Assembly: GCA_030704615.1 (NCBI GenBank)
Contig: CM060732.1
Span: 18,352,001 to 18,416,000 of the forward strand
Length of the DNA: 64,000 nt
Direction: 5' to 3'
Origin: Takakia lepidozioides
Lineage: Eukaryota; Plantae; Bryophyta
The notes beneath the pieces were generated by a model. The model was not told the DNA's origin, did no database searches, and worked only from the letters and a program-made list of their open reading frames with translations. Made by a program: the position numbers and the translations under genes. Position 1 is the stretch's first letter; every line of letters begins with the position of its first letter. Positions 7,216 to 64,000 of the stretch are shown here, one piece after another.

Positions 7216-7256
<41 letters not shown>

Positions 7257-23115: not shown

Positions 23116-24153
23116 CCTTTGGGGCCTGCCAAAAAAAAAAAAAAAAAAAAAAAACTTTTTTTCACTCGTTTCGTGGGACCTTGATGGGGAGGCTGGGCTC
23201 TGTAGAACAACGGTTATGAGCTAGCTGATCCGGCAGAAAAGTCGGAATTGCCTCCTTGTTGCGTTTTAACAAAGGGGATTACCCCCCTGCAGGTAATCTT
23301 TTCAGGTTTTCAGCCCAATTCTTAACTATGGGGGAGACCAGCCTGCAGGTAATTCCTTTGGACAGAATGTTGTTGGGGCCTATATGTACCTCTATTTGCT
23401 CCATATTTGAACCTTCAGCGAATGGTGTGGTTTCCTGAGGTGGTTCCATTATGAGGAATGGCTAGTGGACATAAGGAGGCACTGGCGGACCCGGTGGAGG
23501 CTTGCATGGGGCCTTGGAGGCCAAGTTTCATGAGCTCGTGGAGGGCAGTTTGAGGAGTGTCTACAGGATGCTCACATGGTCATGCAAGTGAGAGAAGAGA
23601 GGAAAAAAGAGGGTGTTGGGATGAGAGCGTGTTGGGGATAGACATTGCTTTAGTTTCCCTTCCTCGTAGTTTTCCACCTTCTCTGTAGGCCGAGACCTTT
23701 CCGTAGGTGGAGGCAAGAGTCAGTCCGGGTTTGGGTTGGGTTGCAGGAGCGACACCGTGGAGTTGTTTTTGGTGTGGGGGAGTTGTTGTTTTCATTCTTG
23801 TGTTTGGATCCCCTCCACATCTGCATGCTTGATTGTGCGCCATGCTAGTTTTATGTGGGCGCTTGATTTTATAAGTGGTGGACTCGGGCTTAATCGCCGA
23901 TCCCACCCTAGAGCATGTTGTGGCTGGGTTGATGAACAGTCAGACCATCTTTGTTTATCATGTGGTGAGGTTGGTGGTGATGACCAGCCAACTATGGGAG
24001 TGCCGGCGGTGGATGCAGGTGCAGGTGCAGGCTATGTTAGGAACCTAGTATTCCAAACCATAAGCCGCATCAGGTTCTCTACCCGGTTACCTTGTGGAGA
24101 GGGGGTTAGAGACAAGTTCTTGACCGGTTGAGTGTCAGTTTGTCAACACGGAG

Positions 24154-25734
24154 GTGCCACTAGTTGCTGGGGAAAGTGCCGGTACAAGCTCTAGCGATAC
24201 TAGCGGGTATACGAGACGAGGTGTGTGGTTTAGGCCACCTTCACCTCCTGTGTCTTCTACGGAAGGTTCTGATTCGGATTGTGAATCAGGAGGACTCACA
24301 CCGGTGGTGCAAGTTGTTTTCTTGCCATTATTGTGGGTCACAATGGAGGAGATGTATGAAGCCACCAAGGGGCCACGTAAGTACTCTGGGGCGGTGGGTA
24401 CCATCGAGTTGGATGATTTTATCCAAGAGTTTGATAGTTGGTGTGACTTGCAGCAAATGCGCAATCCACAACTGTTTACGCCTTTCATGGCATGGAAGGG
24501 GCTATTTCAGCACCTTGAGGGGCCGCCCATGGATGATTACCATGAGTTTAGGCGGGGGCACGATGTTTTGATCGAGGAGTGGAGGATGTACTGGTCACCC
24601 GACTATGTCTCCATCACTAGAGGCATTAGAGGCACTAGAGGCACAAGGGCAGCAGCCACACTGGCAGCTGCACCAGCAGTAGCAGCTACAACAACAGCTT
24701 CCACAAGCACTAGTGGGACTAGTGGTATAGCAACTATGACATCCACCCAAGCTACTGCTGCACCAGCACCAGTGGCGGTGCCTGCCTTCAACCCTGTTGT
24801 GGAGTTCTTTGAAGAGTTGAGAAGGAACTACCAAGGGAGGAGGACAGAGAAGTTGAGGAGCTTGCAAGAGTTCCAATGGAAGCCTATTGAGAGCTTGAGG
24901 GAGGCTTTCACTCGCATGAGGCGCTTGATAAATGTAACCCAAGGGGTTACGGAGGCTTAGGCAGTCCAATTCTGGTATGGCATATTGGACAAAGAGCTGA
25001 GGAGAAGGGCGCGGGATGCAACTCTCCTACAAGCGGCCCAACCCACCTTAGCAAATGTGTTTTTGCTGGCAGAGCGGATAGAGCTCAACATGGTGGAGGA
25101 ACGAGTGGTTATGGTGGGATTTGCTAAGGAGACACCACGCTCAACGTGCTCAAGGTAGCAAGGGGGCTCAGGTGAAGCCCAGGGAAGGGCAGAGAGGACC
25201 TCAGATTTAGGGGTCTCTCCCTTCATTTGCAAGCCAACAGGAGGATCCCATGTCAAGAAGGATTGCCCAGAGGGAGGCAATGGTTTGGCACCGGCACAGC
25301 CTCCACAGTTGCAGTGTGGGCATTGTGGCAAGTACGGGCATGGAGAGGCCCAGTGCTATGGTTTGCATCCTGAGTTGCACCCAGGCCAGTTCCAAGGGAA
25401 CAATGGTGGCCGGGGGCGAGGTGGAGCAGCCCAAAGAGGACGAGGTGCAGGCCAAGGGCAAGCTCAACATGGCCAAGGACGCGGAGGTCAGGGTGGTGAC
25501 CAAGGCATGGCCAACCGGCTTCAGCAGCTAGAGCAGAGGCTCGCTGCCATGGCCACAGCTCAGATGGTACCGGCTCCAAGGCCGGATGGTCCACCTCTTG
25601 CTCCTGAGGGAGGGGACATGGGAGGCATGGGATTCATGTGCGGGGCAGCACTACCACTAGTGAGGGGTGCCACTACCACTACCACTGTAGGTGGGGCACC
25701 ACTACCACTAAGTGTGGGACAGGACTACAACTAA
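24154..25734 (+). pseudogene. gag: Gag with CCHC zinc knuckle (copy 1)
   Basis: KYSG...LDDFIQEFDSWC, ESLREAFTRMRRL, CGHCGKYGHGEAQC and an RGG-rich tail; premature TAG at 24958 and frameshifts. Confidence 0.85.
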
Positions 25735-26032
25735 TGCAAGTGGAGTCAGCTGCGGCAGTGACTCGAGGAGCAGCACGAGTTCCTGAGCCACGGGGTGCGG
25801 AGGTGGAGTTGGATCCACAGCGTGGGGAGGCAAGCCGTCAGGCCAGGCTTCCTCAGTCATTCACATTGGCGGAGACAGTGTCGACGCCGTCCATGGCACC
25901 TAGTTCTTGCCTGACTGTTACCGAGGCGGAGGTTATTATGCCATTGGGGAGAGCTACACGGGCAGCACCACTACCTAGTGTTGCCAAGGCTACGGCAGCT
26001 AGTGTGCTGCTGGGGGCGGCCACATCTGTGTG

Positions 26033-26330
26033 CCAGGCGCCTTTGGCAGTGGTCAACAAGGTGGGTCAACCACGAGCAGCACTACCTACACTGCTCAGTT
26101 TCCCAGGATCACATGCTTTCCGGGATAGTGGACCTGGCCTCCTGTGGGATGCTAAGTTGCAGCAGTTAGTGGAGCCTAATATCGACGAGCAAGAGCGGGC
26201 TATGGGTTTTTCCACTGGGACCACGGCGGTGCCTTCTCTTTCTGAGGCATCACGTCGTCAGGTGTTGGGGCAAGCAATGGATCTCAATTGCTTGACCTAG
26301 ATTATCAGCTTGGCTATGGCTGAGCAACGT
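26033..26330 (+). pseudogene. C-terminal part (motifs IX-X) of a DNMT3/DRM-like C5 cytosine methyltransferase (copy 1)
   Basis: EPNIDEQERAMGFSTGTT...SEASRRQVLGQAMDLNCL resembles DNMT3 EMERVFGFP.HYT...SRLARQRLLGRSW. Same reading frame as the RT at 26772. Confidence 0.85.
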
Positions 26331-26771
26331 AGAGTGCGGAGTGCACTTCCCTTGACGGTCTCTCTGCCTACTGAGACAATACAGGCAATGAGTGGGGGCG
26401 AGCCGGTGAGGACCACGGGGTGTAGACATCCATGGCACACGTGGGAGGTGCTCGAGGTTCAGAGGGAGTTGGCAGCCAAGGCAGCTGTGATGGATGAGGT
26501 TGGGGACTCTTCTCGGGTTGAGGAGGTCCTCAAGGATGAGATGATGGGGCAGGATGAGGCCTTGTCATTGACTGAGCAGGCAGAGAGTACTGCTCAAGAG
26601 GTTGCGGCATAGCAACCACGGGACGCGTCCTCTACCTCTAAGTCTGCTGGACTTAAGGTTGCAGTTACGGAGGACAATTGGGAGCCTGACATTGGACCCA
26701 TTGTCACTGGAGGAGAGAGACGACGTATACGGCGGTTCCTGAGGGCTTACAGGAATTGCTTTGCCTTCAGT

Positions 26772-27748
26772 ATGAAGGATTTGGGAGCACTGAAGGGTCA
26801 GGAGATTCGTATTGAGTTGGCCACGGACACGCCAATCTTTTGGAGACCCTATAGATACAGTGACATGGAGAGGTCTTTGATTCAGATGAGGACTCAAGAT
26901 CTCTGGGAGGCTGGTTTGGTGGAGCTCTTTGGAGGAGAGTATGCCTCAGCCACGGTGATGCCAGCCAAGAAGGATGTCTATGGCAATTGGACGGAGAGAC
27001 GTATGTGCGGTGACTACCGGCCTGTAAATCATCAGACCAAGTCCGATAAGTATGCCATGCCCACACCGGAGGAGATCTTTGATGCCATCGGGCATGCCAA
27101 GGTCTTTAGCACTTTGGACTTGCGGTCCGGATATCACTAGTTCCCGATCAAGGAGGCGGACAAGCAGAAGACGACATTCTGGGGGATCAATGAGCACGGG
27201 AAGGATTGCCTATATCAGTGGCGGTTCTTACCATTCGGGCTTAAGAACGCTCCTGCAAAGTTCCAGAGAGTCATGGACAGGATTCTAGCAGGGGTAGATT
27301 TTTCTCGGTGCTACATAGATGACATCATCATCTTTAGTGCTACGGTGGAGGAGCACGAGAGACACCTTCAGGTGGTGTTTGAGCGCTTGAGAGCGCACGG
27401 ATTGAAATTACATCCGGGGAAGTGCAAATTCTTCCACAACCAGATTAAGTATCTGGGCCACATGATATATCCTGGAGGATTGGGGGTGCAGCAGACTAAG
27501 GTAGAGGCCATTGCACAGATTCCACGCCCCACGGATGTGAGCCGAGTTCGAACTTTTTATGGGGTTGGCAAACTACTATAGACGGTTTGTCAAGGGATTT
27601 AGTGCTATTGCAAAGGCTCTAACCAAGCTGACCAAAGTAGACCAGGAGTGGCAGTGGGAAGATGAGCAAGAGCGAGCTTTTCAAAAGCTCAAGGCGAGGT
27701 TAACCTCGGCGCCCATCTTGAGACGACCTATCAGGGGGCGTCCATTTT
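26772..27748 (+). pseudogene. pol: Gypsy reverse transcriptase (copy 1); RNase H deleted
   Basis: RMCGDYR, LDLRSGYH, PFGLKNAP, YIDDIII, YLGH. The sequence jumps from GRPF to the integrase zinc-binding region. Confidence 0.95.
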
Positions 27749-27799
27749 CAAGTGGGAGGGGATACACCTGCTTCGAGTGTGGGAAGATGGTCACCCATC

Positions 27800-28998
27800 A
27801 CAGCGTGCACGATTAGTGCGGCATGCCCATGAGGAGTTGGGGCATTTTGGAGTGCGACGCACTCATAGTTTACTGCAGGGGCAATATTGGTGGCGTGGTA
27901 TGCACACAGAGGTGTAACAGTTCGTGGCTAGGAACATGGTGTGTGATAGGGTGCATGCTTCATTCAACACCCCTACACCACAGTTGCATCCATTACCCAT
28001 CATGGGATTGGGCTACAGGTGGAGTCTTGACTTTGCAGGGCCTTTGCCACTGACGATGCGTCACCACAGAGATGTGTTGGTGATGGTGAAGCACTTCTCC
28101 AAGTGGATTGAGTTGGTTCCATTGCCTGACAAGGCTTGTGAGGGGGCTGCGTATGCATTCTTGGATCGTGTGCTTAGCCGATTCGGTGCTCCAGCTGAGG
28201 TACTCACGGACCAAGGGAGAGAGTTCTTGGGGGAGTTTCAGGCTTTGTGTGATAAAGCCTTGATAGACCACCGTACCACTTCTCGGGATCATCCTGAGGC
28301 TGATGGCTTGGCAGAGAGAGTGGTTCAGACAGTGAAGAGGGGTTTGCACAAGTATGGCTTGTAAAAGGGACACCTAGGAGATTGGGATCTTCAGGTACCT
28401 TGGTAGCCATGGGCTACAGGTTTAGCAAGCAAGCATCATTTGCCTCCTTCTCACCATATTTCCTTCTCTTTGGCCGAGAGCCGGATTTGCCTGCATCTAT
28501 TTGCAGGGAGGCTGCAGTAGTCCTCAACCTTGATGATCCGGATGTGTGGACACAAGCATGAGCCCAGCGGGCAGAGTTGTTCACTATACGTGGAGGGGGA
28601 TATCGGCCAGGTGTTCGGCGTTTCCACCCTGGGGACTATTGTATGTGTAGCAGACAGCGCCTACGACCTTGGATGTCACCGCATGACGTGTGATTCTAAG
28701 GGTCTGGGAGGTGTTGTCTTCAGGAGTGTTGATTCTGGAGGGTCGAGATGGCATGGTATGGAAGGACCATGTGCGTAATTGTGCGCCCTGTCACCTTCCA
28801 CATGTGGATGGGAGGATAGATCCCAACCTTGCAGTGGTATCTGCAGGGTTGCGTTGCATGCTATGTGGACATGCTCGTGGTGCCGCCACTATGCTGGTGT
28901 ATGATCGATGCTCAAGAGGTTGGCACATGGGATGCTTGACACCACCTCTTGAGAGGGTTCCTGATGGAGATTGGTTATGTCCACACTGCTTGGGATAG
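27800..28998 (+). pseudogene. Gypsy integrase with C-terminal PHD finger
   Basis: HEELGHFG...YWW, LDFAGP, TDQGREF, GLAER. PHD sequence CMLC...VYDRCSRGWHMGCLTPPLERVPDGDWLCPHC at 28855-28989. Confidence 0.92.
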
Positions 28999-29265
28999 TG
29001 GCAGTGGATATGACTAGTGGCAGCTAACAAGACATGGGAGGCCAAGCTCATATGAGTCAATACCCGAGATCTCAGGCTCAAGTTCACAGGTTGCAAGATG
29101 GCGACTAACGATGGGGCAACTCTTGTACTCGGCCTCTTGATCCATCGAGTTTGAGTATAGTAGGAACAGTGGTGGAGGACTTAGTGAGGCTATGACCACT
29201 ATCACATCTTATGGCTAGCTGGACTTAGAGGGACCTAAGCGCCAGCTAGGGGGGCGATTGTGATG

Positions 29266-29495
29266 GACTAGTGGCAGCCTAGTGGTTGGACTAGTAGCTA
29301 CACTAGTGGTGGCTAGTGGCAGCCTAGTGGTGGACTAGTGGCTGCACTAGTGGCGGCTAGTGGCAGCCTAGTGGTTGGACTAGTGGCTGCACTAGTGGTG
29401 GCTAGTGGCAGCCTAGTGGTGCACTAGTGGCTGCACTAGTGGTGACTAGCGGTTGTCTAGTGGCAGCCTAGTGGTGCACTAGTGGTAGACTAGTG
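29266..29495. repeat. CTAGTGG-based tandem repeat (~45-bp unit, about 5 copies) at the LTR start
   Basis: Unit CTAGTGGCAGCCTAGTGGT(T)GGACTAGTGGCTGCACTAGTGGYGG starting at ~29267, 29312, 29357 and 29402. Confidence 0.9.
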
Positions 29496-30587
29496 ATAGA
29501 TTAGTGTTTGGTGTGCACATGTGTTGTGTGGTTTTGGACAGCGATGTAGTTGTGTAGTGATATGTATGCGCACGACATCCCATCTGAAAAGCAAGAAGCG
29601 TGTGTACCGTGGAGGCCGAGTCGAACTCAGACGAGTTATCCCAAAAAGCTCCAAAGTGTACTGTAGTCTCGCTTGAGAGCTGAAATTGAAAGGGCTGCTC
29701 AGCGAAGATATTACCAACGAGCTTGAGGGAGAGCTCCACTTCTTTGACGGTAGAGTAGTAAGTGGCATGGTGGGTGACAACTTTTTATTTTTTTCATTTT
29801 GGCAAGGGCGCTCCAGTCGCGATATATTTTGGGGGGTGAATACAGAGGTGGCGTCACGTCTTATGTCCACCTGGCTACACATATAACAAATATTGTGCAA
29901 TATGGCGAATTTTTCATAACTAAAGAATATTATGCAGGCGACACATGTCAAATTGAGGCAGAAATAGTGGGCGAAATTCCCCTTTGTATTGTGGCAAACT
30001 GGCTACCATGAAGAACCCAAGGTAGCACTTTGGGCACCATTGCCCAAATTCATAGAGCAAAATGGCACCACTCATTCAAATGGAAAAAAATAGTCTCAGG
30101 CACCATAGCCTAATTTCAGACTGAGGCCCATGCATATCAGCAGCCCCCCCACATTCAAGCGCCGCCACCCCTCCTCCACAACAACAAAGCAGCATATCAA
30201 CGGCCCCCCTACATTCAAGCAGCGTTGAAGGCCCGCTCCAAAGTTTTGTACAGTTGACCTTAGATAAATGTTATCTACTTTTTTGTTATGTTATCCTTAA
30301 TGTTATGAAATCTTGGCTCTGTAAAACATAATAGTTTGTTGGTTTTGAAAAAATAATAGTTTTGAAAATAGATATGATAAATGGTCCTAATAATGCTCAC
30401 TTTCAGCATGCACCTGTCACATTTTGCTTAACCTAATGGAATTTCAGTTTTTCTTTTACATGGGTCCTTTTTTTTTTACAGTTGGCAACCCATACATATT
30501 TTTCATTATGTGAAATCTATAAAATTGAGAATAACCCATTAGGTTTTCATGCAATGGTATCCGATCTCTAGAAACATAGAAAAATCC

Positions 30588-32859: not shown

Positions 32860-34024
32860 TTAGGTACCCAAAGGCAACAAAGGTGGAGGTAAACCTTGTT
32901 CCACCGATTCCTTCACTGCTTGCCTATATCTTCTGTTGATGGAGTCTTCGTCACAGTCACTGTCTTGAGGAGCACTTACCTTCTTACCTTTGCGTCGAGT
33001 CCGCCCAGACGATGAAGCAGCTTTGCTCTTCCGTGCTACTTCTTTCTCCGCCCTTACCCTCTCACGAATTGCTTTGGCAATCTCTTTTTGTTGCTGCAGT
33101 TCTTCTTGCCTTTTAAGACATTCAGCTTGCTTTTGTTCTTTGTCTTTGGCCCTCTGGAGGCGGCCAACTTCCAATTTCTCAAGCCTTTTTTTCTTCCTTT
33201 CCTCTATATCAAGTTTGCGTTGTTGGCCAGCTAAGACCTTTGCTTCCTTCTGCAACCGTTGCTCTCTCAAATACTCCTCATACTCCGGGCCAGTGATGCA
33301 CGCTTGCGATGCAATAGTCTGCCCTCGATCTTCTATAATACGAGGTGGCGGGAGGCTTGGTAATGTAAGAAGATCCACAAGGGTTGGCCTAGGCTCATCA
33401 ATGCTAAGTTGTGGACACACGTTGTGATAACTCTTCTTCTTCACTAAAGACCATCATGTCCAAGAGAGACTCTGGTGGATTTTCAATGTTGTCATTGAGA
33501 GGGCTCTCATGGGTTGATTCTTCGTCAGACCCTGAGTCTTCATGATGCCCTGAACTTGAGGTTGAACCCCTGTCAAGGTCATTGGAGTCAAATATTGTAC
33601 TTGGGCCCATATGAGAGTCAAGAGCATGTGGATCTAATGGAAATATCCCTGTTTTGCCGAACCCTGCTTTAACGTTCTCCACAGTGCAAGCTGCCTCTAG
33701 GGCCTGAGATGCCAAAGTTGCCAATGCCACTTTATTGCCATTGCCATTCAACCACTTTGGGTTCGCTGCAATCATCTCTTCCCGCAGCTGGCCGAACCTC
33801 AGCTTGAATGCTCGGAAGACTGCCACATCCAATGGTTGAAGCCTATGTGAAGTGTGAGGGGGTAGTAGGGCCACTTGTAAACCCATATCTCGCGCAATTT
33901 TCACAGCCTCTTCTGTGAGATGGCTTCCATGGCCATCCAACAGGAGAAAATGTGGGTTGTCAGGACTTACTCCTCCAGGCACGGACTGCTGAAAGTGCTT
34001 TAACCACTCAATGAACAGGTCATT
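32860..34024 (-). pseudogene. pogo transposase, C-terminal half
   Basis: NNDLFIEWLKHF, LLLDGHGSH, LPPHTSHRLQPLDVAVFRAFK, GFGKTGIFP, then a K/E/R-rich coiled tail after a frameshift. Confidence 0.92.
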
Positions 34025-36666
34025 ATTCGGGTAGAAGCATGGTACGGGCCATCCAAAAGCGGCAACTTGCAGTCCATAAAAAATGGACATATGAAGTGGA
34101 AACGCAGCACGCGGGAACGAAGTCGGAAAAAGTTGAATTTATTGTAGCCGTTGATTGTTTTTGTACATCAAGTTATTACCGTCGATTGGAGGTCGCCTTC
34201 ATCGGGGGGTGGCTGGAAGATGGCTGGTCGCGTTGGGCTAGACTGAAGTGCGGGGACGACGAGCTGCCATGTATGACGCGCGATGCACAACTAGAAGCTA
34301 GCCAGGACGTACGAGTTGATTGGGATTGGGAATGTGAAGAGATTGGGAATGTTTGATCACAAAAGTTTGCTTACCATTTTGTAAGATTTTTAGGGTTTAG
34401 CTTGTGATTGTTTCATCAACTCTACGCATGCGTGAAGTTCATTTTCATTTCTGTGTTTCTATGGGCGCGCTTGGGTGGTGGTAGCAGAGGAAGCGGGCGA
34501 TGCGAGCAGAGCTATAAAGTGCAACATTGTGTGTTGCTGCCATAGCACAGAGGCACGAGGGTAGAGGAGTAGAGGAGGAGCTTGGGCGGGGGTGCTCGGG
34601 TGTGCCATCGCTAGAAAAGCACTTGATTGTTGCCTGACTCTACCCTTGGTAAGTTTCATTCAAGTTCGTGGCCAGTCGATTTGGTGTGCGGCATATCTGG
34701 AATTAGGTTCTTGCAAGCATGAATGTTTCTGTCGTAGCGCCTGGAAAGAGATGGCAGATTGCCATCCAAATGATGATCATGACTAGTAACTTTCCACTTG
34801 AACTCTACAAATACGAGCCACCGCTGCGATCTTTCACGCCTGATTCTATACTTTGCATTGTGCATTTGAACACAGGTGGTTAATTGCCTTTCTTGAATCT
34901 TGACAGTGATGTCTGTTTTGTTTATCATTCTCTATGGTGTGTTCCTTGTTGGGTTGGTATTCTCCCATTTTTTCCCTGCCCAGAGAAAGATATACTTACG
35001 TCTTGTTAGTGAGTCTAGTTGAGCTAATTTTTGGAGCTACCTGCTAGCAATTCATGTTGTAAAACCCTAAAAATTTAGGCTACACAGTCATTCATACATG
35101 ACAGTTTGTATGTGACCATTACGGTGAGGGTACCTGCACGATGATTGATCACAAAAGTCTGCTTACTATTACCTTTGTGAGGGGCTCACTCCAGTAGTTG
35201 GAGCTACCTTGATATAAACAATTGGTTGCATCAATCTGCTGTGTCTGAGAGCTACCTAGCAATTAGACCCCAACAGGGCCAGGGCCTTAGGCTCAGAATC
35301 GATACTTTGAAAGTTAGTGAACAGAGGTGCAAGCACTATACGGTCCTGAAGAGGGTGGCTCTCTGATGAGAATACCCGGGACACTGTTTTAGAAAATGGG
35401 TATTGCCTTCAGCGCCCACACATCGAGCATTGACAATCTCCCTTCCTGTCTGCATGTTATTTGTTCAAGAATTGACCCCCTGCCCTGGGGTTAAATTGTA
35501 GTTTAATGCTGAGGATAGGTAGGCCTTTCAGCCTAAGGTTCACCCATGTCACAAACTGGAAACAAGTTCAGGGATGTTATTCCTAACTTATTTTTGTTCA
35601 AGCATTATTTCATGCTTCAGACGTGGCCTTTAGACACTTCAGCCTCCAAGTGAGCTTCATCCAGCAGGGTCAGTTCTTCCTGCCCAAACTTCAGGTACTT
35701 GAAACATCTCCTCTACATTTTTTTTGCCATGACTTCAAACTGTTTAACAGGACGGTCTTGCTTCCAAGAAATAGAGTTTGTCATCTTAGGGTATCTGGTA
35801 TTAGGCACTGAGCCCACCATCCCTTGAACTAACTCATGACTTTGAGAGCTCGAGGGTGGTGCGCCAAACTCGCCTTGAACAGCCGCATTAGCTATTGTAG
35901 AGCACGCTGACATGCTCTCTTTGAGCACCGAAAGCTGAATGGATTTTAAAGTTTTAGGCATGGTTGGAGTTGCTCTCCCACACGGCAATGCCTACTCCAA
36001 GGTAGGCCAACATGGTCGTTGTAACTTCAGTATTAATCCGTCTGCAGTGGAAACATTTGAGTGAGAATATCCAAAGTTTGTGTTTAGTGTTTGTTTGTGT
36101 TTGTGTGTGTTCATCACAGTTACAACTGGAGGAGAACTCCACAGCAAGATATGTGCTCGAAGGGAGCACACAATTGTGGCATTTAATGATCGTGGGGAGG
36201 GATGAGGGGATCTGGCCTAATCTAGCCTACCATGTAGACTTGTGAACTGTTGTCGCTGGCTGGTTTCAAGTGAGACTGCATGCCCTTTTTTGTCAAGTTG
36301 CATTTGTATATGGCTTGTACAAATGTGGTCGTTGTTATAAAAGGGACGATATCAGCGAGGCAGGGAAGAGTAGCAGATGTAGCATAGGTAGCTGAATGTA
36401 AAGTTTGTCACACTGGTAGTGGGTACCAAGTCCAGTCTATTCAAACAGGTGAACAGACCCCTGAGTTTGTGTCACTTATCTTTGTTGTTATGACTTCAAA
36501 ACTACTCTCCAACGAGCTACCCTTTTTGTGTTATAGTGAGGGGGGGCAAGTGGATCCCATTTTTGGAGACCTGGACAGTAACCTATTTTCTAGTGTGCAG
36601 AAGAAGGGCCCAACAGTGTGACTGTTGATTGCCAAGGAATTTTGAGTGTCTGTGTTGAAAATGTTT

Positions 36667-48706: not shown

Positions 48707-49475
48707 ATATTGAATTTCCAGAAAAAATGTATTGAGATGGTATCCGTTGTCCACTTGCATTGATGCAAACTACAACTGTCAGCCATTCTCGATTACCAGA
48801 ACTCCTAGTCAAAACTGCCTTGCTTCCTTTCCTTGCAATGACTTTGGCTCCACCAATCTTTATGCTGGCTGAAAGTCCTGTTTCGTCGACATTCCACACA
48901 TGAGATGGTAAGAACTTGGACCTGGCATATGTTTCACCAATGAACTTGTAGAAGGTATTACATCGCTCTGGACTCACATTCTTTGCTCTCTTAGCATCGA
49001 GGCCTTGTGGCGTCCGCAAAACAAGGTGTGGGTGCCTCAATTGGAAAAACCTCCACCACTTATTCCCGGGCATTCCAGCTTTTAAAGGGGTGGAACGACC
49101 TTCACAAATTTGCTTGACTTTGCTTTTTAACATCTGCAAAGATACACAATGGGCTACAACTTGCATATCCTCACACCATTTCACCAGTGCACTTTCTTCA
49201 TCTGGTCTCAAAGCAGTGGGTGGGCCAAGTTTCCTGTATGTCACCTTCTTTGTTTTCCAGCTACGGATGGTAGATTCAGGAATGTTGTACAATCTTGCAG
49301 CTGCGCGAAGGCCCATTTGCCTTGACTGAATGCTTTCGAGAGCTTCTTTCATTGATTCTTCTGTCCACTTGCCACGCTCCTTACATTTTTGTTTGAATCT
49401 CGGGGCAGGTGTCATGACACGATGAACTCTCTTCCCCCACACTAAGGGAGAAGACCCCTTGCACGCTGTCACCAT
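48707..49475 (-). pseudogene. pogo transposase, N-terminal half (HTH_psq, CENP-B-type HTH, first catalytic Asp)
   Basis: WTEESMKEAL...LRAAARLYNIPESTI, KWWRFFQLRHP, VWNVDETG, REWLTVVVCINASG...YIFSG. Confidence 0.93.
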
Positions 49476-52400
49476 TTTGGGCTATCTTATTCACCCTATT
49501 CTCCCTTAGCACATGTACACCTAGAAACATAGTGGATACATCTCCCTTGTCACACGTCAAACAATTGGCAAGCAGATCCACCCTGTATTTTGCTTCAGCT
49601 TCAGAAGGACCTGCCACATGCGGCCTAAATCATAGGCTTTCCAAGCTTGGGACCCTTGTTGGCCTCCACACCAATTTTTATGTCCTTAGATCTTTGCCGC
49701 GACCCTTCACCTATAGCAATCCTGACAGTTCATTGGGAAGCAGCTGCGCCACTGCCTTCCAGTATGCCTTGTTTGTACTTTTGTGGAAGTTCTCTTGATT
49801 TGCTGGAAAAACCTGCCCAATAGACAACATGGCCCTTATGTTCAGTGCACGTATGTGCATTGTACTTAGATATGTAAATCTCCACATAAAATATAGACCC
49901 ACATATGTAATAGTTTGTACATGTGTGTCAGTGAATTTGACCACATTTTTACACTCAACGATTTTGATTTTCCGTTGCAAACTTACTGAATGAATGCATG
50001 GGCACTTCAAACCTTCAGATAATCTCCAATGCCAAGGCAGGGCAAAGGACACTCAAGCGCATATACAACTCACATGAGGCAGCTAAAAGGGATAAATATT
50101 TCTCTCGATGTCCAGATTGCACGGTTCCCTTCTGCATCTGCATCTCATGGATCATTATTGTATGGCAATATGACAAATGAGTCGGACACCAGTGCAACCA
50201 TTCACTGGAAAAGTTAGAGAGTCTCTACACATGAGCAATAGACAAATCATATTGAACAGCCTAGTAGTGATTTTGGTTTCTTGACTGTGGTGACATTGAT
50301 TCCTTCTACCTTTGTCAAGGGCTGGAGGGAATTTCAAATTGGTGACTCTTGAATTTATCCCACTGTCTCTCCAAACAAGAGTTGGGTCCTTGATTCACTT
50401 TCATCTAAACCTAAAGGGCCTTTCTTTCTTGGCAATTCCTGGTGGCTGATGGCCCTTAGTCCTGATTGCTGCTACATGATTGTGTAGCCATAATATATGT
50501 TGATCCTTCAATGATAGAGACCGGATATAGACATTCATCCTTCAGATTTATCAGTGGATTACTGCCACACAATTTCAAAGAATCTGTCAAACTCTTACAT
50601 TATTCAATCAGAAAGTGCTCCGCATTGAGAAAAAACAGTATACCCTTGAAAAGGAGCTAACCACAATGAGTACTTACTTCGGGTCTGATAGGAAGTTCAA
50701 ACAGATGTGGAATCCCGAACTGCTTCACCACCTGTACTCAGATTTGATACGGCCCCCATCAAAACCACTTATGAGATAAACATGGTAGTCAAAATGGGAA
50801 GGGTTTAAGATATAGATGGTCTCAAAATGTTTCACCATGATCCACCTACACTAAAGCCATTGGAGGATGGCGGTGCATATGAAAACATGAAGGTGCAGTG
50901 CATAGCCCACATTCTTGTGCATTTGTTGGTAAAGATCTGCTTTGACTCACATTGAGTGATACAGTGATGCGCATACCTTGGATAGTAGCGCTTCCCATCA
51001 GCTTTGAAGCAGCACATATTCTCCACTATTGCAATGCACGGAATTTGGGCACAAAAAACATCATGCTATCATTTGGCCTTGATTTTTGTTATATCCATGG
51101 GGCTGACAGCCAAGCCGCTACAGCAAGAAACATTTATTCAACATGGCTGAGGACCTTAAGGATGATTTGAAGGGCCTAGCTACAATCAGCACTAGACTAA
51201 AATCTAAAGTGCGGGCGGAAGTCTACCTTAGAACAATAAACAGATGCAGAGAAGAAGAGGACAATGCCAATGCGGGCTGTGTGGTCGGCAATATTCATTT
51301 TTTGACCCTGCTGCCATGACCCGTTTGGGAGCTAGAGGCTAACGTCAGTAAATATGCTGCGGTGGCATTCAACGACAAAAATCCTTCCATCATAGGTAAT
51401 CTGGAGCTTGAAATCTGGCCCTCTTACACCAACGAGCTAACTTGCAGAATTCAACATGGAAATTTAGGGCCGATTCTGACAAGATGGAAAAACAAGGTGA
51501 AATGTGTTGAAGAAGGTGCCTTCATTAGCAGTGCCTTGTTCTATCAATTGTGATGCTGCCGCTGCTGTTTCCAGTTGTCCATTCGTGGCTGCATCCTCAT
51601 TGTCGCTCCATTGTTGTAGATGTAAGGCTCACGATTTTGAGTATGAGACAGATTCCATAACCGCATTGACTTGTTTCATGGATATTTTGGAAAATGTGAT
51701 GGCTACTATTTTTATGAAGATCTGATGGAGACCTTGAATGTAATTGCTCTGCCAGATCGATGGAGTTCACGCCATGGCAATGCCCGATCTCGTGACAATC
51801 AATTGTGGGGAGCAGAGGCGGGAAGCAAGAAGCATGAAGCGCGTGGATGAATGCATGGATGTGACAGGTAGAATGTGGATGGAATGTTCTGGATGATAAC
51901 GTATAACATTCATCCAAACTGCGCAATCAGGTGCGCAGTATTGGGAACATTGTTGCGAACTGCGCATTATTAGGACCATTTACCATATTACCTCAACAAT
52001 TATTTTGACCTCCCTCAAAAACTATTGATGAGGTAACTTTCTTTTAAGAAAAACATAATGTTTGATATGTGATAAAAGATAGCAGATATATTATAATTTT
52101 TCTGCCCTATAGGCATAACAATTATCTAGGGTCGACTGTAACAGCACCCTAATTCTTGGCGACGAGCCTAAGCACCTCGCAATCGAAGCAGGTGACACCA
52201 TCTCCTCGGGCAATGCAGCGTTCTGGCAACGGCCAGCCCCTCCACCCGGCTCAGTCTGGCGATCTGACGGTGGAGGATGGTGCCCATGGCGAAATCTGGC
52301 TGGCCCCCGGCGTGATGGGGCGCCAGCCCTTGGATTTAGGGCGCCGTGCCCCCCGTTCTCAGGCGAAAACATAGGGTTCCCTGGTGCTTTTTGGCACCCG

Positions 52401-55596: not shown

Positions 55597-58500
55597 TGCA
55601 GGAAACTTCTGGAACACTCTATCCTATCTGTCTAAGAATCCTTCATGTAATTCGCTGAGCTGGATCATTACAAAATCTGACGTGGCCGCCATGTAGTAAG
55701 TACGTTGTTTATTTCGTGGAACTCTGTCACTTAATACTCCCACTAAGAGTTTCACAGAAATAAACAATAGAGTCACAGACACCATAAACCTCCTTGCATC
55801 TCCCACTTTGTTTATTTCGAAGCCAGATTGAGCAGCGCCCGAAAACGGTTGAATGCTGGAGTAGGCAAGGGCAATCTGATCGCTGGTAGCAATGTACTGA
55901 AGTATGATTTGCTCCTTCTCATAGAAATCCCTGACAAGATGATAAAACAATATCAATGTGCTTTGTTTTCTTGTGATAAACAGGATTCTTGACACAGCGG
56001 ATAGCGGCCTGGTTGTCACAGTAGATAGTAAGTTGGAATTTTCTGCGGAAAGCTGAGTTCAGCAAGCATTCTTCGCATCCATACAACTTCCTTCGATGTG
56101 TTGCTCATCGCAACATACTCAGCCTCCATAATAGAAGCAACATTGCAATTCTGTTCCCTGCTGGACCAAATGATTGGAGCCCCATTGAGAAATAGCAATG
56201 CGCCAGTTCTGCTTTTGCGATCATCGGGGTCGCCCCCATAATCTGCGTCTCCATAAGCAATTAACGTGTGAGGCGCTGAAGTAGGGCCGAAGTGAAGAGC
56301 AAAATCTGCTGTTGCATGAAGATAACGAAAAATTCGTTTTAGTGCAGTTACATGTATCGGCTTAGGTTGAGACGAATACTTGGCTGCAATAGCAATTGCA
56401 TATGCGATATCAGGACGGCTCCTTGTCATAGCATACATAAAGGAACCCACTGCTTCCTGGTAGGGAAAATTGGTAACCACAACATCGTCGTGTGACTGAG
56501 TATAAGCTTCCAGTGTGACATTGGAATCTGCTGGGGTTGTCACCGTACGAGCATCGTCCATCTTGAACTTTCTAACAATGCGCTTGACGTACAGTGTCTG
56601 ATCAATAGTGAGCGTCCTCTGTGCTCTGTTCCTTGTCACTCGTAAGCCGACGTAGCAGTCAGGTGCACCCTTAGTAACTTCGAAATGCTTTCGGAGATAA
56701 TCTATGATATCATCCCCCTGTCTTAGTATCAGAAGATGCCACAAGACCATCATCCACAAATATTGTCAGATAAATCTTGGGATCAGCACTGTAATAGAGA
56801 CATGGATCTGCAGTGCTTTGCAGGAGGTTGTACTTGATCAGGAAGTCGCTGAACTTCTGGTTCCATGCTCTGGATGCCTGCTTCAAGCCATACAAGCTTT
56901 TTCTGAGCTTGCAAACTAATCCTTATGTGCCTGGTTGCTCAAAGCCCTTTGGCTGGCACATGTAAATCTCTTCATCCAACTGCCCGTGTAAAAAAGCAGT
57001 TTCAATATCAAACTGTAATAGGTCAAGATCGTCAACAGCCGCGATAGACAAGAGTGTGCAAATGGTTTCATGTCGAACCACAGGAGCATAAGTGTCGTGA
57101 TAATCCACCCCTTGCTTCTGGGTGTATCCCTTAGCAACCAGTCGACCCTTTAGTCGATCCACGCTTCCGTTTGACTTAAAAACCCATCTGCATTGGACTG
57201 CTCTGCGTCCTGGAGGTAGCTGTGTCAATGTCCACGTCTCATTTTGAAGCCTGAGTGAGTTATACTCCGTCTGCATTGCCTCTTGCCACTTGGTATGATC
57301 TGGTGCAGAAATTGCCTCTTCATACGTATTTGGATCACCAAGAGACTCAATGGTCTCAGTGTTTCCTGCAAAATCAGTTTCAGCATAATAGAGGAAATCG
57401 TCGTACCGTTGAGGTGGCCCTGCATTTCGCTGTGGTCTGACTCTCACACGAGCTTCGTCAAAAATGATTTGACCGTCGGCATCTGGATTGTCCACATAAT
57501 CTCTGCTATTGGCTGCTCCTGAGCTCTGTGATCCATCAATTGGTTCTACAGGCTATGCCACATTCTGTTGCAGGTCTCATTCTGGCTGAACTGGATATGT
57601 TGATGCATTTGAGGCAGGACCTAAGGCAAGTATGATAGAGCTCTGATTGCTCTGTTGAGATTCCTTGAACGCTATGTTGGTTGCATCATCGTGAAACAAG
57701 ACATCTCTGCTTACGATCACCTTGCATTTTTCTGTGTCCCAAAGCCTATAAGCTTTACTTTGGATGTCATAGCCTAGGAAAAGGCACTTTCTGCTTTTGC
57801 TATCCAACTTCTTACGCAGCTATGAGGGGATGTGTGCATAGGCTGTAGTTCCAAATGCACGTAAATGTGCCACATCTGGCCGCTTATTATTCCAGGCCTG
57901 CAATGGGTTGCATACCCTAAGGAAAGAGTGCCAATTCGGTTGAGCTAATATGCTGCCGTCATTACTGCTTCACCCCAAAAGTTGAGCGGCATTTGCTTGT
58001 CATGCAACATAGTCCTAACCATTTCGATAATGGTTTGGTTATCTCTTTCTGCATAACCATTTTGTTCAGGGGTGTACGCTGTTGTCAGCTCATGCGTGAT
58101 TCCCTTAGCTGATAGAAACTCAGCAAATGCCTTGTTCACATATTCAGTCCCTCGATCGGTGCGAAGCTTCATTATCTCGTTTCCGGTAGCATGCTTGGAG
58201 ATGTTCCATAACTCCTTGAAGCGATTAAGAACATCACTTTTCTGGCTAATATAGTAGATTACTCTATAGCCGCTGAAGTCGTCTTTGAAATTTACAAAAT
58301 ACTTAGCACTACCTATTGAAGGCTGTTGAATAGGACCTACCACATCTGAGTGATAAAACGATCCTACCAGTGCTTTAACTCTCTCACGCTGAATATGTTT
58401 AGGGAAGGTTTGACGATGATTTTTACCATGGACACAACCCTGACAAAATGGAAGATCGCTCATCTTGCCTGAAATGCTTAGACCTGTAACTGATCCTCTC

Positions 58501-59000
58501 TTCTCCATGACCTTAAGCACCTCAGCATTAGCATGACCAAAGCGTCTATGCCAATTTTCCAAGTTCTGTCCTTTGAGTGACAGAACCAATCTCTGCAATG
58601 ACTGAGTGTGCCTGTGAATCTGGTTTGACTACTCTGATACACAATCGTCTTTCTCTCACTCCTGTCATGACCAGTTTAGACTGTATGTGCTCTGAGTAGA
58701 ACCGACAAGTACTGTGGCGATATAAACAAGTTATGTCTCTGCTTGTAAGCGCAGTGATTGACACAAGATTGCGTCTCAGTTCAAGTAAAAGTACTCGGTT
58801 CAAAATGCCTCTTATCCAAATCCCATCAACATAAGACATTATTTCTATATCTCCAACACCTCTGACCCAAACCTGAAGGTCCGTTGCGACTTTAACTCCC
58901 CAGACCCCAGAGACAATAGGTTTAAAGCTAGCATACCAATCGCGATGGAATGTCATGTGCTCCGATGCCCTGGAGTCGGCAATCCACATTTCTTCTTGAT
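55597..59000 (-). mobile_element. pol: Ty1/Copia retrotransposon pol (PR-IN-RT-RH) with PPT and 3' LTR start; gag and 5' LTR not recognisable
   Basis: WIADSRASEHMT, WHRRFGH, HSDVVGP, TDRGTEY, NGYAER, KGRLVAKGY, FDIETAFLHG, LYGLKQASRAW, FVDD, DADYGGD...EAEYVA. PPT AAAGTGGGAGA then TG at 55798 on the minus strand. LTR end at 55597 is tentative. Confidence 0.93.
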
Positions 59001-59442
59001 CACTGTGCGTGATGTACGCCTGACTGATGTATCATGCTGTTGTAAGCACCTGCTGAGGCTGAGTATTCTCTTGTGAAGATACAAAGTTCCAATTCCTCCA
59101 CTGCTTCGTGTATCTCTGATATATAATGCAAAACTTCATTGGCCATTACTTGCTGCTGCATCACTCCCACTGTCACTTGCAGTATGGTAATCAGCTTTCA
59201 ATAGCATATCAGGGATCGTTAACTTTGCTTCCGCAAGAAACGCATCGCTCTCCATGACGTCGGTTTCTGTTACATAGCTTGGCTGCCTGGCTTATGCTTA
59301 CAGTCCTTCTTGCAGCCCTTGATTGAGCAAAGATCCTCCGTACATTCCTTAGACCAGTGTCCCCAGCAATGACACTCGTTGCACTGACTGCTCTTTTTCT
59401 ATACTCTACAAACTCTAGTCTCCATACACTTCAAGAAACTGC

Positions 59443-59575
59443 GTATGGGCTCCCTCTGCCCAACATACACTTTTGTGAAACAGAGTATGGGCCCCCTCTG
59501 CCCAACATATATTTTTGTGAACAGTGTATGGGCTCCCTCTGCCTCACCATACAGTTTTGTGAAAAGAGTATGGAT
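59443..59575. repeat. ~41-bp tandem repeat x3
   Basis: GTATGGGCYCCCTCTGCC...CATAYA.TTTTGTGAA repeated three times. Confidence 0.85.
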
Positions 59576-60499
59576 ACAAGTGGAGAGACGTTGCCTACCA
59601 TACGTTTTCACTAAAAGAGTGTGACATCGAGGGTGTATCTGGAGGAGTATTGCCTTTGGAGGATCTTTGGGGGGTCATTTGAGGAGCTTTTGTAAGACAC
59701 TTGAAGAGCTCTTGAATGGGTGTTTGGAGGACTTGTTTGAAGGACTATTTGGGGTCCTTGAGGGCCAAGATTTGGCAGGCTCTTGCGGCCTTGGTGGACT
59801 ATTTGGGGTCCAATTGTACAGGCTTTGGGGGCCTTAGTGAGATTGTTTGAGAGACATCTTGAGGGCTCTTGGAGAGTTATTTGAGAGACCCTGGAAGGTA
59901 GTTCTGTCTGGTGGTCATGAGCAAGAGCGTTTAGAGATAGGGGGAGACTAGTGGGATGAGAGCATTTTGGGATTAGGAATTGCTTTAGTCTCTCTTCCCC
60001 ATAGTCTTCCACCCTCTCTATAGGCCAAAACCTTTCCGTAGGTGGAGGCAAGAGCCAGTCCGGGTTTGGGCTGGGGTGTCCTTGTAGGAGCGACAGTGTG
60101 GAGTCTTTTTTTGGTATGGGGGAGTTACTGTACTCTTGATTTTCTTGTGTTTGGATCCCCCCCACACCTGCATGATTGACAGTGCGCCATGTCAGTTTTG
60201 TGTGGGCGCTTGTTTTCATAGGAGGTTGGTCCGGATTTGATCACCGACCAATCCTAGAGCGTGCTGTCGATGGTGAGGCTGGGGTGATGACTAGTTAGAC
60301 CATCATTGTTTCTCTTATGGTGAGGCTGGGTTGATGACCAACAGACCATAGGAGTGCTTGCTGTGGATGCAGGTGCAGGTGCAGGTGCAGGTTTATGTTA
60401 CGAACCTAGTACTAGGCCACAATAGGTTCTCTATCATGTTACCTTGTGGAGAGGGGATTAGAGACAGGTTTACAACAAGTGTGGTTGCGAGTTTTCATC

Positions 60500-61730
60500 A
60501 CGGAGGTGCCACCAGTTGCCGAGGGGAGTGCCGGTGCGAGCACCAGCGATACTAGTGGGTACACAAGACGAGGTGTGCGGTTTAGGCCACCTTCACCTTC
60601 AGTGTCTTCTGAGGAAGGTTCAGACTCGGAGTCAGGAGGATTCTCGCCGAGGGTGCAAGCCATTTCCGTACCATTGTTGTGGGACACGATGGAGAAGATG
60701 TATGGCGCTACCAAGGGGCCACGTAGGTACTCTGGAGCTGTGGGCACCATTGAGCTTGATGACTTTATACAGGAGTTTGATAGTTGGTGTGATGTGCAGC
60801 AAATGCGCAATCCACAACTGTTTACGCCTTTTATGGCGTGGAAGGGGCTATTCCAGCACCTTGAAGGGCCGCCCATGGACGACTACCATGAATTTAGGCG
60901 GGAAAATGAGGTGGAGATTGAGGAGTGACGACAATATTGGTCACCTGACTTTGTCTCCATCACTAGAGGCATAGTGACAAGATCCACGGCAACCACGGCA
61001 GCAGCTACACCAGCGGCTTCTGCAAGCAGCAGTGGAATTAGTGGGTCAGGATTAGCTGGGACATCCACTGCAGCTCCTACCGTTGCACCAACACCTATGC
61101 ATGCCTTCAACCTAGTTGTGGAGTTCTTCCAAGAGTTGAGAAGGAACTACCAGGAGGTGAGGACCGAGAAGTTGCGGAGCTTGCAAGAGTTCCAATGCAA
61201 GCCTACTGAGAGTTTGAGGGAGGCTTACACTCGCATGAGACGCTTGATAAATGGAACCCAAGGGGTTACGGAAGCTCAAGCAGTCCAATTCTGGTATGGG
61301 ATATTGGACAAGGAGTTGAGGAGAAGGGTGCGGGATGCAACTCTCCTACAAGTGGCCCAACCCACCTTAGCAAATGTATTTTTGCTAGCCGAGCGGATAG
61401 AGCTCAACATGGTGGAGGAGCGGGTGGTTATGGTGGGGTTTGGCAAAGAGACACAACAAAGTGGGGCTCCTAGCCAACAACAACCAACTCCCCAACATGC
61501 TCAAGGCAACAAGGGGGCTCGGACGAAGCCCAGGGAAGGTCACCGGGTTGCGGTGGGGGTGGTTCCACGAGGGGTGGTGGTAGCGTAGTGGGTCTTAGTG
61601 GGGGTGGCATAGGACTCACCATGGGGGTGGAGACCTTGTGGTGGGAGTCGTGGGGAGTCTTGGGACTCATCATGAGAGAGGATCTCAGATGCAAAGGTCT
61701 CTTCCTTCATTCTCAGGCCAACAACAGACG
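60500..61730 (+). pseudogene. gag: Gag (copy 2), zinc knuckle deleted
   Basis: Same Gag motifs as copy 1; TGG>TGA stop at 60926. Confidence 0.85.
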
Positions 61731-61731
61731 A

Positions 61732-62420
61732 CCTTGCCAAAGACATTCTCCCGCAGGTCATGGTAATGGTTTACATGATGCAAGGTCGCATCCGTTTTGG
61801 GAGATGTTGCGAGTGTTGCGTGACTTGCAAGTGAGGCAAGTGCAACCTCCAGCTTACATTCTGGAGAATGTTCCTCTCATGGGGGATTCTCGGGCCAGGG
61901 TTATGGCTAGTGTGCATCAGGTGCGGTCTTGGATTGGACAAGCTGTATTATTGGATGCAGCTACAGTGGGGTCACGGGCTCATATGCCTAGGTTGTGGTG
62001 GACCAACCTAGCACCACCAGAGTTGCTCAAGAGAGCATATGATTCCATTCAACGGCCACCCAGTCTCACGGTTGAGGGCATTTTGGACCAAGGGAGGCAG
62101 CCACAGAGGGTGCGACATGATGACCATCCACTTTTGGTGGTGGTTAATCGAGTGGGACAGCCACGTACGGCCTTGCCTACACTTGTGAGATTTCCCACGT
62201 CTCATGCTTTTCAAGACAATGGTCCAGGGTTGATTTGGGACAGTGCACTACAGCAATTGATGGAGCCCAATGCGGATGAGAGAGAGCGGGCAATGGGGTT
62301 TGACACAGGCACTACAGCTATGCCAGCTCTATCAGAGGCATCACGCCGATAGATGTTGGGTCAAGCAATGGATCTAAATTGCTTGACATGGGTCATTAGC
62401 TTGTGCATGGTTGAGCAACG
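61732..62420 (+). pseudogene. DNMT3/DRM-like C5 cytosine methyltransferase catalytic domain (motifs IV, VI, VIII, IX, X)
   Basis: PCQ (61732), YILENV (ENV 61864-61872), LDAATVGSRAHMPRLWWTNL (compare DNMT3 IDA..VSAAHRARYFWGNL), ERERAMGF, RR*MLGQAMDL. Motif I FxGxG is missing. Confidence 0.9.
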
Positions 62421-62936
62421 GAGGTTGTAGACAGTGGTGGCTACTACTGCACTCCCATTGGATAGTGCATCCTCCCTGCCAACCGGGACGGTTGAGGCAG
62501 TGAGTGGGGGCAAGCACAGGATCATGGGGTGCAAACACCCATGGCAGATGTGGGATCAGATGCGGAAAAAGAGAGTCATTGGGTCTCTCAAGGAGCAATA
62601 TGAGGAGTGGGGAGAGCCATACACGGAGGATCAGTTGGAGGCCAAGGTGGCCAAGGCTCTTGAAGAGGTTGAGGATGTTTCTTTTGCGGAGGATGTTTTC
62701 AAGGTGGCTATGGCGGAGCAAGTGGAGGCTACGCCATAGTCAGGGTGGGCAGATAAGGCCCAAGAGATTGCTATCTAGCAACCAAAGGTGCGTTTCCTAC
62801 TTCCAAGCTTGGTGTACCCAAGGTTGCAGTCACTGAGGACAATTGCGAACCAGATGTCGGATCTACAGTCACTGGAGGAGAAAGACGGAGGATCCAACGA
62901 TTTCTAAGGGCTTATAAAAATTGCTTTGCCTTCGGT

Positions 62937-64000
62937 TTGAAGGATTTGGGGAGTTTGAAGGGCCAGGAGATTCGTATTGATTTGGCAAGTGACACGCCAA
63001 TTTTTCGAAGGCCCTACAGGTATAGTGACATAGAGAGGTCTTTGATCCAGTCGCGGACTATGGAGTTGTTCGAAGCTGGATTGGTGGAGTTGTCAGGTGG
63101 GGGGTATGCCTCGGCAATGGTGATGCCAGCTAAGAAGGATATCTATGGCAATTGGACAGAAAAGAGGATATGTGGGGACTACCGTCCTATGAACCGTCAG
63201 ACTAAGTCCGATAGATATGCCATGCCAACTCCAGAGGAGATCTTTGATGCCATTGGGCATGCAAAGGTGTTTAGCACATTGGACTTGCGATCCGGTTACC
63301 ACCAGTTGCCAATCAAAGAGGCTGACAAGCAAAAGACGGCATTCTGGGGGATTGACCAACATGGGAAGGATTGCTTGTACCAATGGCGGTTCCTACCGTT
63401 TGGGTTGAAAAATGTTCCTACAGAGTTTCAGATGGTCCTGGATAGGATTCTTGCGGGGCTAGACTTTGCCCGGTGCTACATTGATGATATCATCATCTTT
63501 AGTGCCACAGTTGAGGAGCATGAGAGACACCTTCAGGTGGTGTTTGAGCGCTTGAGAGCGCATGGGTTGAAATTGCACCCTGGGAAGTGCAAGTTCTTCT
63601 ACAGCCAGATTGAGTATCTAGGCCACATGATATACCCTGGAGGACTGGGTGTTCAAAAGACGAAGGTGGAGGCCATTCCACGCATTCCACGCCCCATAGA
63701 TGTTAGCAGAGTTCGTGCTTTCATGGGATTGACAAACTACTATCGACGGTTTGCAATCAAGGGATTTAACAGCATTGCAAAGGCTCTTACCAAGTTGACC
63801 AAGGTGGGTCAGGGGTGGCAGTGGGAGGAGGAGCAGAAGGAAGCCTTTGAGGAACTCAAGGTTTGATTGACTTCTGCACCTATTTTGAGGCGGCCTACTC
63901 AGGGGCGGCCTTTCCAGCTACATACGGATTGGAGTATGCTGGGGATTGGGGCAGTGCTCGCACAGGTGGATGATGAGAGAAGAGAGTTTGTAGTGGCATA
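62937..64000 (+). pseudogene. pol: Gypsy RT and start of RNase H (copy 2)
   Basis: CGDYR, LDLRSGYHQ, PFGLKN, YIDDIII, YLGH; stop at 63866, then LTSAPIL...LHTDWS. Confidence 0.95.

Follow-up and report, generated by a model that had tools for sequence, protein, structure and literature searches.

The closest described system to the element analysed here is KnitGypsy-Dnmt3, a Gypsy retrotransposon whose methyltransferase domain lies in the Pol ORF and is described as an acquisition of the Klebsormidium nitens lineage (PMC5890265, de Mendoza et al. 2018). The same paper reports that this domain gave no activity in yeast, a result that its authors call inconclusive, and that SymbioDIRS-Dnmt3 methylated CG de novo in yeast. 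DNMT-carrying Gypsy elements had previously come, in that account, from this one alga, where activity could not be demonstrated (PMC5890265). Two other texts cite the KnitGypsy kind under 'streptophytes', land plants going unnamed in the portions available (PMC12344493; bioRxiv 10.64898/2026.05.21.726589), and the second of these states that its EpiLTRs are distinct from the streptophyte Gypsy-DNMT3 elements; the supplementary trees of both may include bryophyte or chlorophyte copies. Bryophyte and chlorophyte members are not reported in the accessible portions of PMC6453930, PMC6317226, PMC10952607, PMC6673714, PMC9985172 and PMC7466625. Moreover, a literature search over sources outside the subscription journals returned no paper on such members, nor on a stop codon following the DNMT, and the word 'methyltransferase' is absent from the REXdb lineage classification paper (Chlamyvir, Tcn1, Phygy, Selgy).

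A sequence-only reading of the present DNA had pointed to the Klebsormidium precedent, and this precedent is real (PMC5890265). The DNMT-carrying Gypsy kind has been known since 2018; what is new is a land-plant branch in which the methyltransferase closes ORF1.

Two decayed copies of a Ty3/Gypsy element

The window, by which we mean the whole stretch of 64,000 nucleotides that was analysed, was searched in six frames with a family profile made from 22 relatives, giving exactly two matches, at 61732-62565 (E 8e-116; copy 2) and 26034-26444 (E 1.5e-49; copy 1). Both DNMT segments sit between a gag and a reverse transcriptase (RT). Across the two copies, gag, RT, the start of RNase H and integrase follow one another in Ty3/Gypsy order, the protease being seen only in relatives (L001 and P0123), and the element is a Ty3/Gypsy retrotransposon. 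Identity between the copies is 79.6% across the 5' region plus gag and 78.2% across the RT. Their features are as follows.

Copy 2 (window 59400-64000, + strand)
59400..60688, +: 5' non-coding region; left edge approximate; 79.6% identity to copy 1 from 59952 (23617 in copy 1); depth up from bin 59334
60689..61546, +: gag with one premature stop (tblastn to Marchantia P0123 residues 1-282, 60%)
61540..61674, no strand: insert of ~135 nt, missing from other copies (joints skipping 133-135 nt in runs X1 and X8; copy 1 aligns across)
61675..61731, +: post-gag segment fused directly to DNMT motif IV, a deletion junction (pairwise alignments to copy 1 and L001)
61732..62427, +: DNMT3-like C5 methyltransferase, motifs IV-X only, motif I absent, premature TAG at 62350 (PF00145, family profile)
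62428..62775, +: C-terminal tail with which the Gag-protease-DNMT ORF closes; TAG occurs prematurely twice (P0123 aligned as far as 62565)
62776..62784, +: TAG CAA CCA, ORF1 end and predicted readthrough signal (position and context as in copy 1, L001 and L002; fits the CAR YYA given in PMC2754532)
62811..64000, +: reverse transcriptase and RNase H start, cut by the window end (RVT_1 E 1e-31; tblastn)

Copy 1 (window 23343-28995, + strand)
23343..24342, +: 5' non-coding region (local alignment to copy 2)
24343..25560, +: gag with two zinc-knuckle-like motifs, 25240-25266 and 25315-25356 (tblastn to P0123 residues 1-415)
26034..26330, +: DNMT motifs IX-X, premature TAG at 26298 (tblastn, family profile)
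26610..26618, +: TAG CAA CCA in the RT frame, predicted readthrough junction (sequence context)
26676..27747, +: reverse transcriptase and connection (RVT_1 E 1e-25)
27747..28657, +: integrase with stops and frameshifts (rve E 3e-12)
28687..28995, +: PHD finger at the integrase end (PF00628 E 6e-9)
29260..29506, no strand: tandem repeat of 11-bp units 3' of the copy; element membership only putative

In copy 2, the methyltransferase motifs fall in a single + frame and in canonical order, as the sequence-only reading had it: motif IV (PCQ) at 61732-61740, VI (ENV) at 61864-61872, VIII (AHMPRLWWTNL) at 61978-62010, IX at 62278-62301 and X (GQAMDL) at 62359-62376. The profile check proposed in that reading bears this out, the copy 2 ORF matching PF00145 with E 5.2e-6 (26.5 bits; cut-off, 22), whereas the match of its gag to Retrotrans_gag (E 7e-4) lies below the cut-off of the Pfam scan. 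In the alignment to P0123, an uninterrupted Marchantia ORF of 1278 aa, copy 2 covers residues 1-282 and resumes at 973-1245, leaving a gap of ~690 residues from which the zinc knuckles, the protease and motifs I-III have been deleted; additionally, a methionine replaces the first arginine of motif VIII. At the join, the DNA of the first zinc knuckle and that of the motif IV loop are partly alike. A 265-nt contig from run X5 (9 differences over 175 nt) matches from 61906 back to exactly 61732 and then diverges; because the match stops exactly there, we take it to derive from sister copies with a different sequence upstream of 61732. The DNMT and RT of copy 2 lie in different frames, offset by a 1-nt gap relative to copy 1, with four TAGs between them; three TAGs before the RT are premature. 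The 135-nt insert (61540-61674), on which summed depth within the mapped stretch peaks, likely derives from a different repeat of very high abundance.

Copy 1 lacks P0123 residues 491-1103 (protease and motifs I-VIII), and its RNase H has also been deleted, residues 1643-1852 of the relative P0317 finding no match. Its DNMT segment shares the RT frame, with TAGs at 26298 and 26610 before the RT and a further one at 27138 within it, which agrees with the earlier observation that only TAG stops separate the two domains in this copy. Neither window copy can function: each has lost the protease and motif I and contains premature stops. An intact enzyme within the window was considered and rejected, as motifs I-III are gone from copy 2 and motifs I-VIII from copy 1.

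The 5' regions found no match in the 5 kb downstream of copy 1, and no matching 3' repeat for the 5' region of copy 2, which is cut by the window end, was seen within the window. Searches around these decayed copies for LTRs, primer sites and polypurine tracts, and for DIRS-like split repeats, found none.

The remainder of the window is also rich in repeats. A 116-bp satellite, punctuated by runs of T, forms an array of ~8 kb (1064-8990), and a LINE-type endonuclease ORF (PF03372; 22249-23154), directly followed by a 24-nt A run, lies just upstream of copy 1. Pieces of Pogo/Tc5-like transposases (DDE_1; HTH_psq, HTH_Tnp_Tc5) are found on the minus strand at 33407-34138 and 48708-49481, and a decayed Ty1/Copia pol (RVT_2, rve, gag_pre-integrase, Pol_BBD) on the same strand at 55600-59100; copy 2 starts just past the 5' end of the latter and may have inserted into that element. 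A Pfam scan of the 51 other window ORFs gave nothing above cut-off except transposon domains, and Rfam gave no matches on the window.

The methyltransferase is DNMT3-like

The predicted model of an intact relative (P0002; pLDDT 87) retrieved DNMT3A, DNMT3B or DNMT3C in all 32 of the Foldseek matches listed, the best with E 2.5e-19. The family profile scores 87 bits with DNMT3A and 78 with DNMT3B, against 35-45 for DRM and 34 for M.HhaI. Four phage methyltransferases, taken from the best of 582 phage records, score 64-77 bits with the same profile, near the 87 of DNMT3A, and an Atlas search returned a viral cluster first (0.95) and a streptophyte cluster second (0.94). The domain is DNMT3-like, and its nearest characterised relatives are the DNMT3 enzymes; the label follows from the best match and from the published Klebsormidium tree (PMC5890265), our own trees covering element and phage enzymes.

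The motifs run from I to X in the relatives and from IV to X in copy 2, that is, unpermuted. DRM enzymes carry motifs VI-X before I-V, so the domain is not of the DRM type and membership of that family was rejected: of the original assignment to DNMT3/DRM, the first half holds as a likeness to DNMT3 and the second falls. Over 184 near-complete domains, the catalytic cysteine is present in 182, the glutamate of ENV in 183, and the two motif VIII arginines in 180 and 182, respectively. With these residues retained in 180-183 of 184 domains and the fold recovered in the model, the domain is complete in the family, as opposed to the window copies.

Spread, architecture and relationships of the family

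One search picked out 127 relatives from 1725 candidates, and a further one gave 81 that were longer, from 2444; with a distant member as query, 113 of 3756 were recovered. The family profile finds 612 clusters at E<=1e-30. In run X1, 21,098 of 3,038,600 contig records map to 59000-64000, and summed depth on the DNMT, which is not a copy number, exceeds that of the first two flank bins hundreds-fold; the family is plainly abundant in the organism of this run. Relatives accounted for two of 203 pattern matches in metagenome_contigs, and for none of the four stretches that fit the pattern in viral_contigs.

Most relatives are nameless, and the named ones fall into two architectures. The DNMT precedes the RT in Marchantia, Riccia, Calypogeia, Sphagnum, Closterium and Klebsormidium nitens (KFL_013780020), and follows RNase H in the chlorophytes Monoraphidium and Cymbomonas. 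The sequence-only reading knew of no well-described land-plant case; Marchantia, Riccia, Calypogeia and Sphagnum now supply relatives from land plants. Of 156 proteins of at least 900 aa, 79 have the order RT-RH-DNMT-INT-PHD and 30 are Gag-protease-DNMT, and integrase followed by a PHD finger is the usual end of complete members. The DNMT is almost certainly an integral domain of the family. One after-RNaseH member, P0284, combines a PHD finger with a chromodomain (PF00385).

In an unrooted tree of the DNMT (49 hand-picked rows), the before-RT sequences (Klebsormidium, Closterium, bryophytes and the window) are separated from the after-RNaseH ones (Monoraphidium, Cymbomonas) at 86/90. Copy 2 groups with bryophyte proteins at 98/94, within a 14-row clade at 99/97. 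The K. nitens protease-DNMT protein KFL_013780020 (P0457), which we infer to be a KnitGypsy copy, lies on the same side as copy 2. An RT tree of 34 rows, with no Klebsormidium RT and with a bootstrap that had not fully settled, gives the same architectural split at 88/85 and joins both window copies, Marchantia and L001 at 100/100. When four phage enzymes were used as outgroup, the before-RT group was no longer one clade; this rooting was discarded as unreliable, the branch being long. P0278, an RT-RH-DNMT-INT-PHD polyprotein labelled as a bacterial MAG, pairs with a Monoraphidium protein at 99 and is probably algal DNA in a bacterial bin.

From these sequence comparisons, the window family probably shares its lineage with KnitGypsy-Dnmt3, and it is most likely the land-plant branch of that known kind, not a new kind. 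Its neighbours in the trees suggest that the host is most likely a land plant, one of those that form no seeds.

Selection on the DNMT

Over the 95 DNMT codons that the window copies share, pS is 0.78 (saturated) and pN 0.14, with 19, 12 and 53 differences at the three codon positions. Omega between the copies is 0.08 for the RT (287 codons) and 0.11 for Gag (200 codons); between copy 2 and L001, it is 0.06 over 226 DNMT codons. For L001 and L002, a closer and decayed pair, the values are ~0.3 (DNMT) and 0.23 (RT). These ratios indicate that the DNMT domain, like the RT, is under purifying selection. The earlier proposal that the domain is an integral and selected part of the element is upheld, with omega resembling that of the RT and the catalytic residues kept in ~180 of 184 relatives.

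Synonymous divergence between the copies (24343-27545 against 60689-63746) differs by domain, pS being 0.36 for Gag, 0.58 for the RT and 0.78 for the DNMT, which suggests recombination between subfamilies. Nested pieces of a different repeat interrupt both loci, L001 and L002, and in the former they divide the RT. The CpG observed/expected ratios of the window copies, 0.46 and 0.44, equal those of the local background (0.44-0.50); a footprint of self-methylation is therefore absent. Nor do they show any trace of the cDNA pre-methylation, or camouflage, that the sequence-only reading had suggested.

A stop codon between the DNMT and the reverse transcriptase

Of 448 DNMT-bearing proteins, 177 were assigned to the clade of the window copies. 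Sixty-seven of these end 90-155 residues past motif X, though not all of these ends are homologous, some being contig ends or frameshifts; 43 stop closer to motif X, 60 do not get as far as that motif and one has a long non-RT tail. Six reach the RT, and each of these is a gene model from Marchantia or Riccia; the point at which the junction is skipped varies among them. Uninterrupted Marchantia ORFs of 1248-1281 aa share one common end position, and in several subfamilies ORFs of 1228-1451 aa that are otherwise free of interruptions stop at positions fixed within each subfamily. Outside the clade, in P0317, P0413, P0431, P0439 and P0468 (Closterium included), the DNMT continues into the RT with no stop.

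All four DNA junctions examined, none of which comes from an intact element, read stop-CAA-CCN: TAG CAA CCA in copies 1 and 2, TAG CAA CCC in L001 and TAA CAA CCT in L002. The plant-virus (TMV-type) readthrough signal is UAG CAR YYA (PMC2754532), and readthrough between gag and pol is known in MuLV (PMC5009743). Two of the four junctions match CAR YYA in full and the other two at five of six positions. The tail of ORF1 is in the RT frame at three junctions, whereas that of copy 2 is off by 1 nt. Decay from CAG to TAG is frequent in these copies. No obvious common structure emerged when the RNA 3' of each of the four stops was folded, without a shuffle control.

The sequence-only reading had placed the domain inside the Pol polyprotein. 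This placement does not hold for the window branch: as read from these ORFs, the DNMT closes a Gag-protease-DNMT ORF ahead of a conserved stop, and would enter Pol only in a predicted readthrough product. On its sequence context, stop-CAA-CCN probably serves as a readthrough signal into RT-RNaseH-integrase-PHD.

Proposed mechanism and alternatives

The account that we favour as a whole, and consider reasonably probable, is that the window holds two dead copies of a family which encodes Gag-protease-DNMT before a leaky stop, makes the enzyme at the level of Gag, packages it and uses it on its own cDNA. Intact relatives would carry Gag-protease-DNMT, the stop codon and then RT-RNaseH-integrase-PHD. 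Were the stop read through at a low rate, protease and DNMT would be produced at the same level as Gag, together with small quantities of RT, RNase H, integrase and PHD finger; the DNMT would be packaged at high concentration, be freed by the protease inside the particle and methylate new element cDNA. As the DNMT would be concentrated and freed where reverse transcription occurs, new cDNA is its likeliest substrate, and from this analysis we lean towards cDNA as the main one. The idea of cDNA methylation follows a proposal made for SymbioDIRS-Dnmt3 (PMC5890265).

Two alternatives concern how the stop is passed. The stop might be a genuine one, with RT-integrase of the same family made by splicing or re-initiation, which we think unlikely: six gene models do link DNMT to RT by skipping the junction, and an ATG lies two codons past the stop in L001 and L002, but the points of skipping vary among the models, as is usual for gene finders faced with a stop, the window copies have no ATG at that place, and a single in-frame stop with CAA-CCN has been kept among sequences that are saturated at synonymous sites. 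Splicing between protease and RT does occur in Ogre elements. It is very unlikely that the junction stop is itself a decay mutation, active elements having one continuous ORF like their algal relatives. Such continuity is seen outside the clade (in the same five proteins, P0317, P0413, P0431, P0439 and P0468), and the remaining stops of the window copies are likewise TAG; yet ORFs of 1228-1451 aa from several subfamilies, uninterrupted otherwise, end precisely there, and an unspliced run from DNMT to RT occurs in none of the 177 clade members.

The main rival to cDNA as the substrate is host chromatin at the insertion site, where an active enzyme, travelling with the integration complex and guided by the PHD finger, would methylate either the site of insertion or other elements. 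PHD fingers are readers of histone marks (PMC6673714), one follows the integrase in copy 1, 79 of 156 long relatives are RT-RH-DNMT-INT-PHD, and the DNMT adjoins the integrase in chlorophyte members; in the window branch, however, the stop separates the DNMT, which is encoded together with Gag, from integrase and PHD finger, and we rate this reading as rather improbable. That the domain is retained for binding DNA or RNA rather than for catalysis would fit the inactivity of the Klebsormidium domain in yeast, which its authors call inconclusive (PMC5890265), but the catalytic cysteine, the glutamate and both arginines persist in 180-183 of 184 domains, from green algae to mosses, making this highly doubtful. 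The capture by chance of a fragment of host DNMT3 at a single locus, which with dN/dS near 1 is what the sequence-only reading had named as evidence against its claim, is refuted, its probability being close to nil: there are two loci in the window and hundreds of relatives, the position in the element is fixed and omega is far below 1.

A broader history can be sketched only tentatively. One ancient Gypsy clade might have carried an active DNMT3-like enzyme and a PHD finger since before the split of chlorophytes and streptophytes, with the DNMT later moving from behind RNase H to before the RT. Land plants might then have gained the leaky stop, which would supply each particle with enzyme at capsid stoichiometry and leave new copies pre-methylated; such elements would be plentiful in bryophytes and might contribute to the host methylome.

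The window copies themselves are ordinary dead remnants, and their value lies in the breadth of the family and its testability in Marchantia. Uninterrupted ORFs are annotated in Marchantia polymorpha (e.g. Mp_4g09160, Mp_5g06330 and Mp_Vg00370), and they allow the question of why a transposon should carry its own silencing enzyme to be put to the test with the genetics and methylomes already available. The position of the stop, behind the DNMT, predicts both the amount of enzyme and its site of action. The wider spread of the family makes a one-off capture in Klebsormidium less likely. Furthermore, DNMT counts in bryophyte annotations include transposon copies.

Comparison with known systems

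KnitGypsy-Dnmt3, as described, resembles the window family in being a Gypsy element with an unpermuted, intronless DNMT3-like domain under purifying selection. It differs in that its domain is placed in the Pol ORF, whereas the DNMT of the window branch ends ORF1 before a conserved stop, and in that it is called a K. nitens acquisition, whereas relatives of the window family occur in liverworts, mosses, Closterium and chlorophytes. SymbioDIRS-Dnmt3 and SymbioLINE-Dnmt of Symbiodinium are also cytosine methyltransferases borne by retroelements (PMC5890265), but are reported on a DIRS or LINE backbone in a dinoflagellate host, with neither a DDE integrase nor a PHD finger described. The EpiLTRs of Cymbomonas and Euglena likewise combine an LTR element with a cytosine methyltransferase and a chromatin reader; their DNMT, by contrast, is given as sister to DNMT4 and is accompanied by an adenine methyltransferase and a chromodomain (bioRxiv 10.64898/2026.05.21.726589).

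With the host DNMT3 enzymes (human DNMT3A/B; moss PpDNMT3, as described in PMC6453930), the element domain has fold, motif order and best sequence match in common. It is nevertheless only ~20-23% identical to them, lacks PWWP and ADD, has an insertion between motifs II and III and is embedded in a retroelement. Finally, the readthrough systems of TMV type (PMC2754532) and of MuLV (PMC5009743) share with the element, in their published descriptions, an in-frame stop before the polymerase and a CAA-CCN context; in the element, the putative readthrough stop comes after protease and DNMT rather than after Gag.
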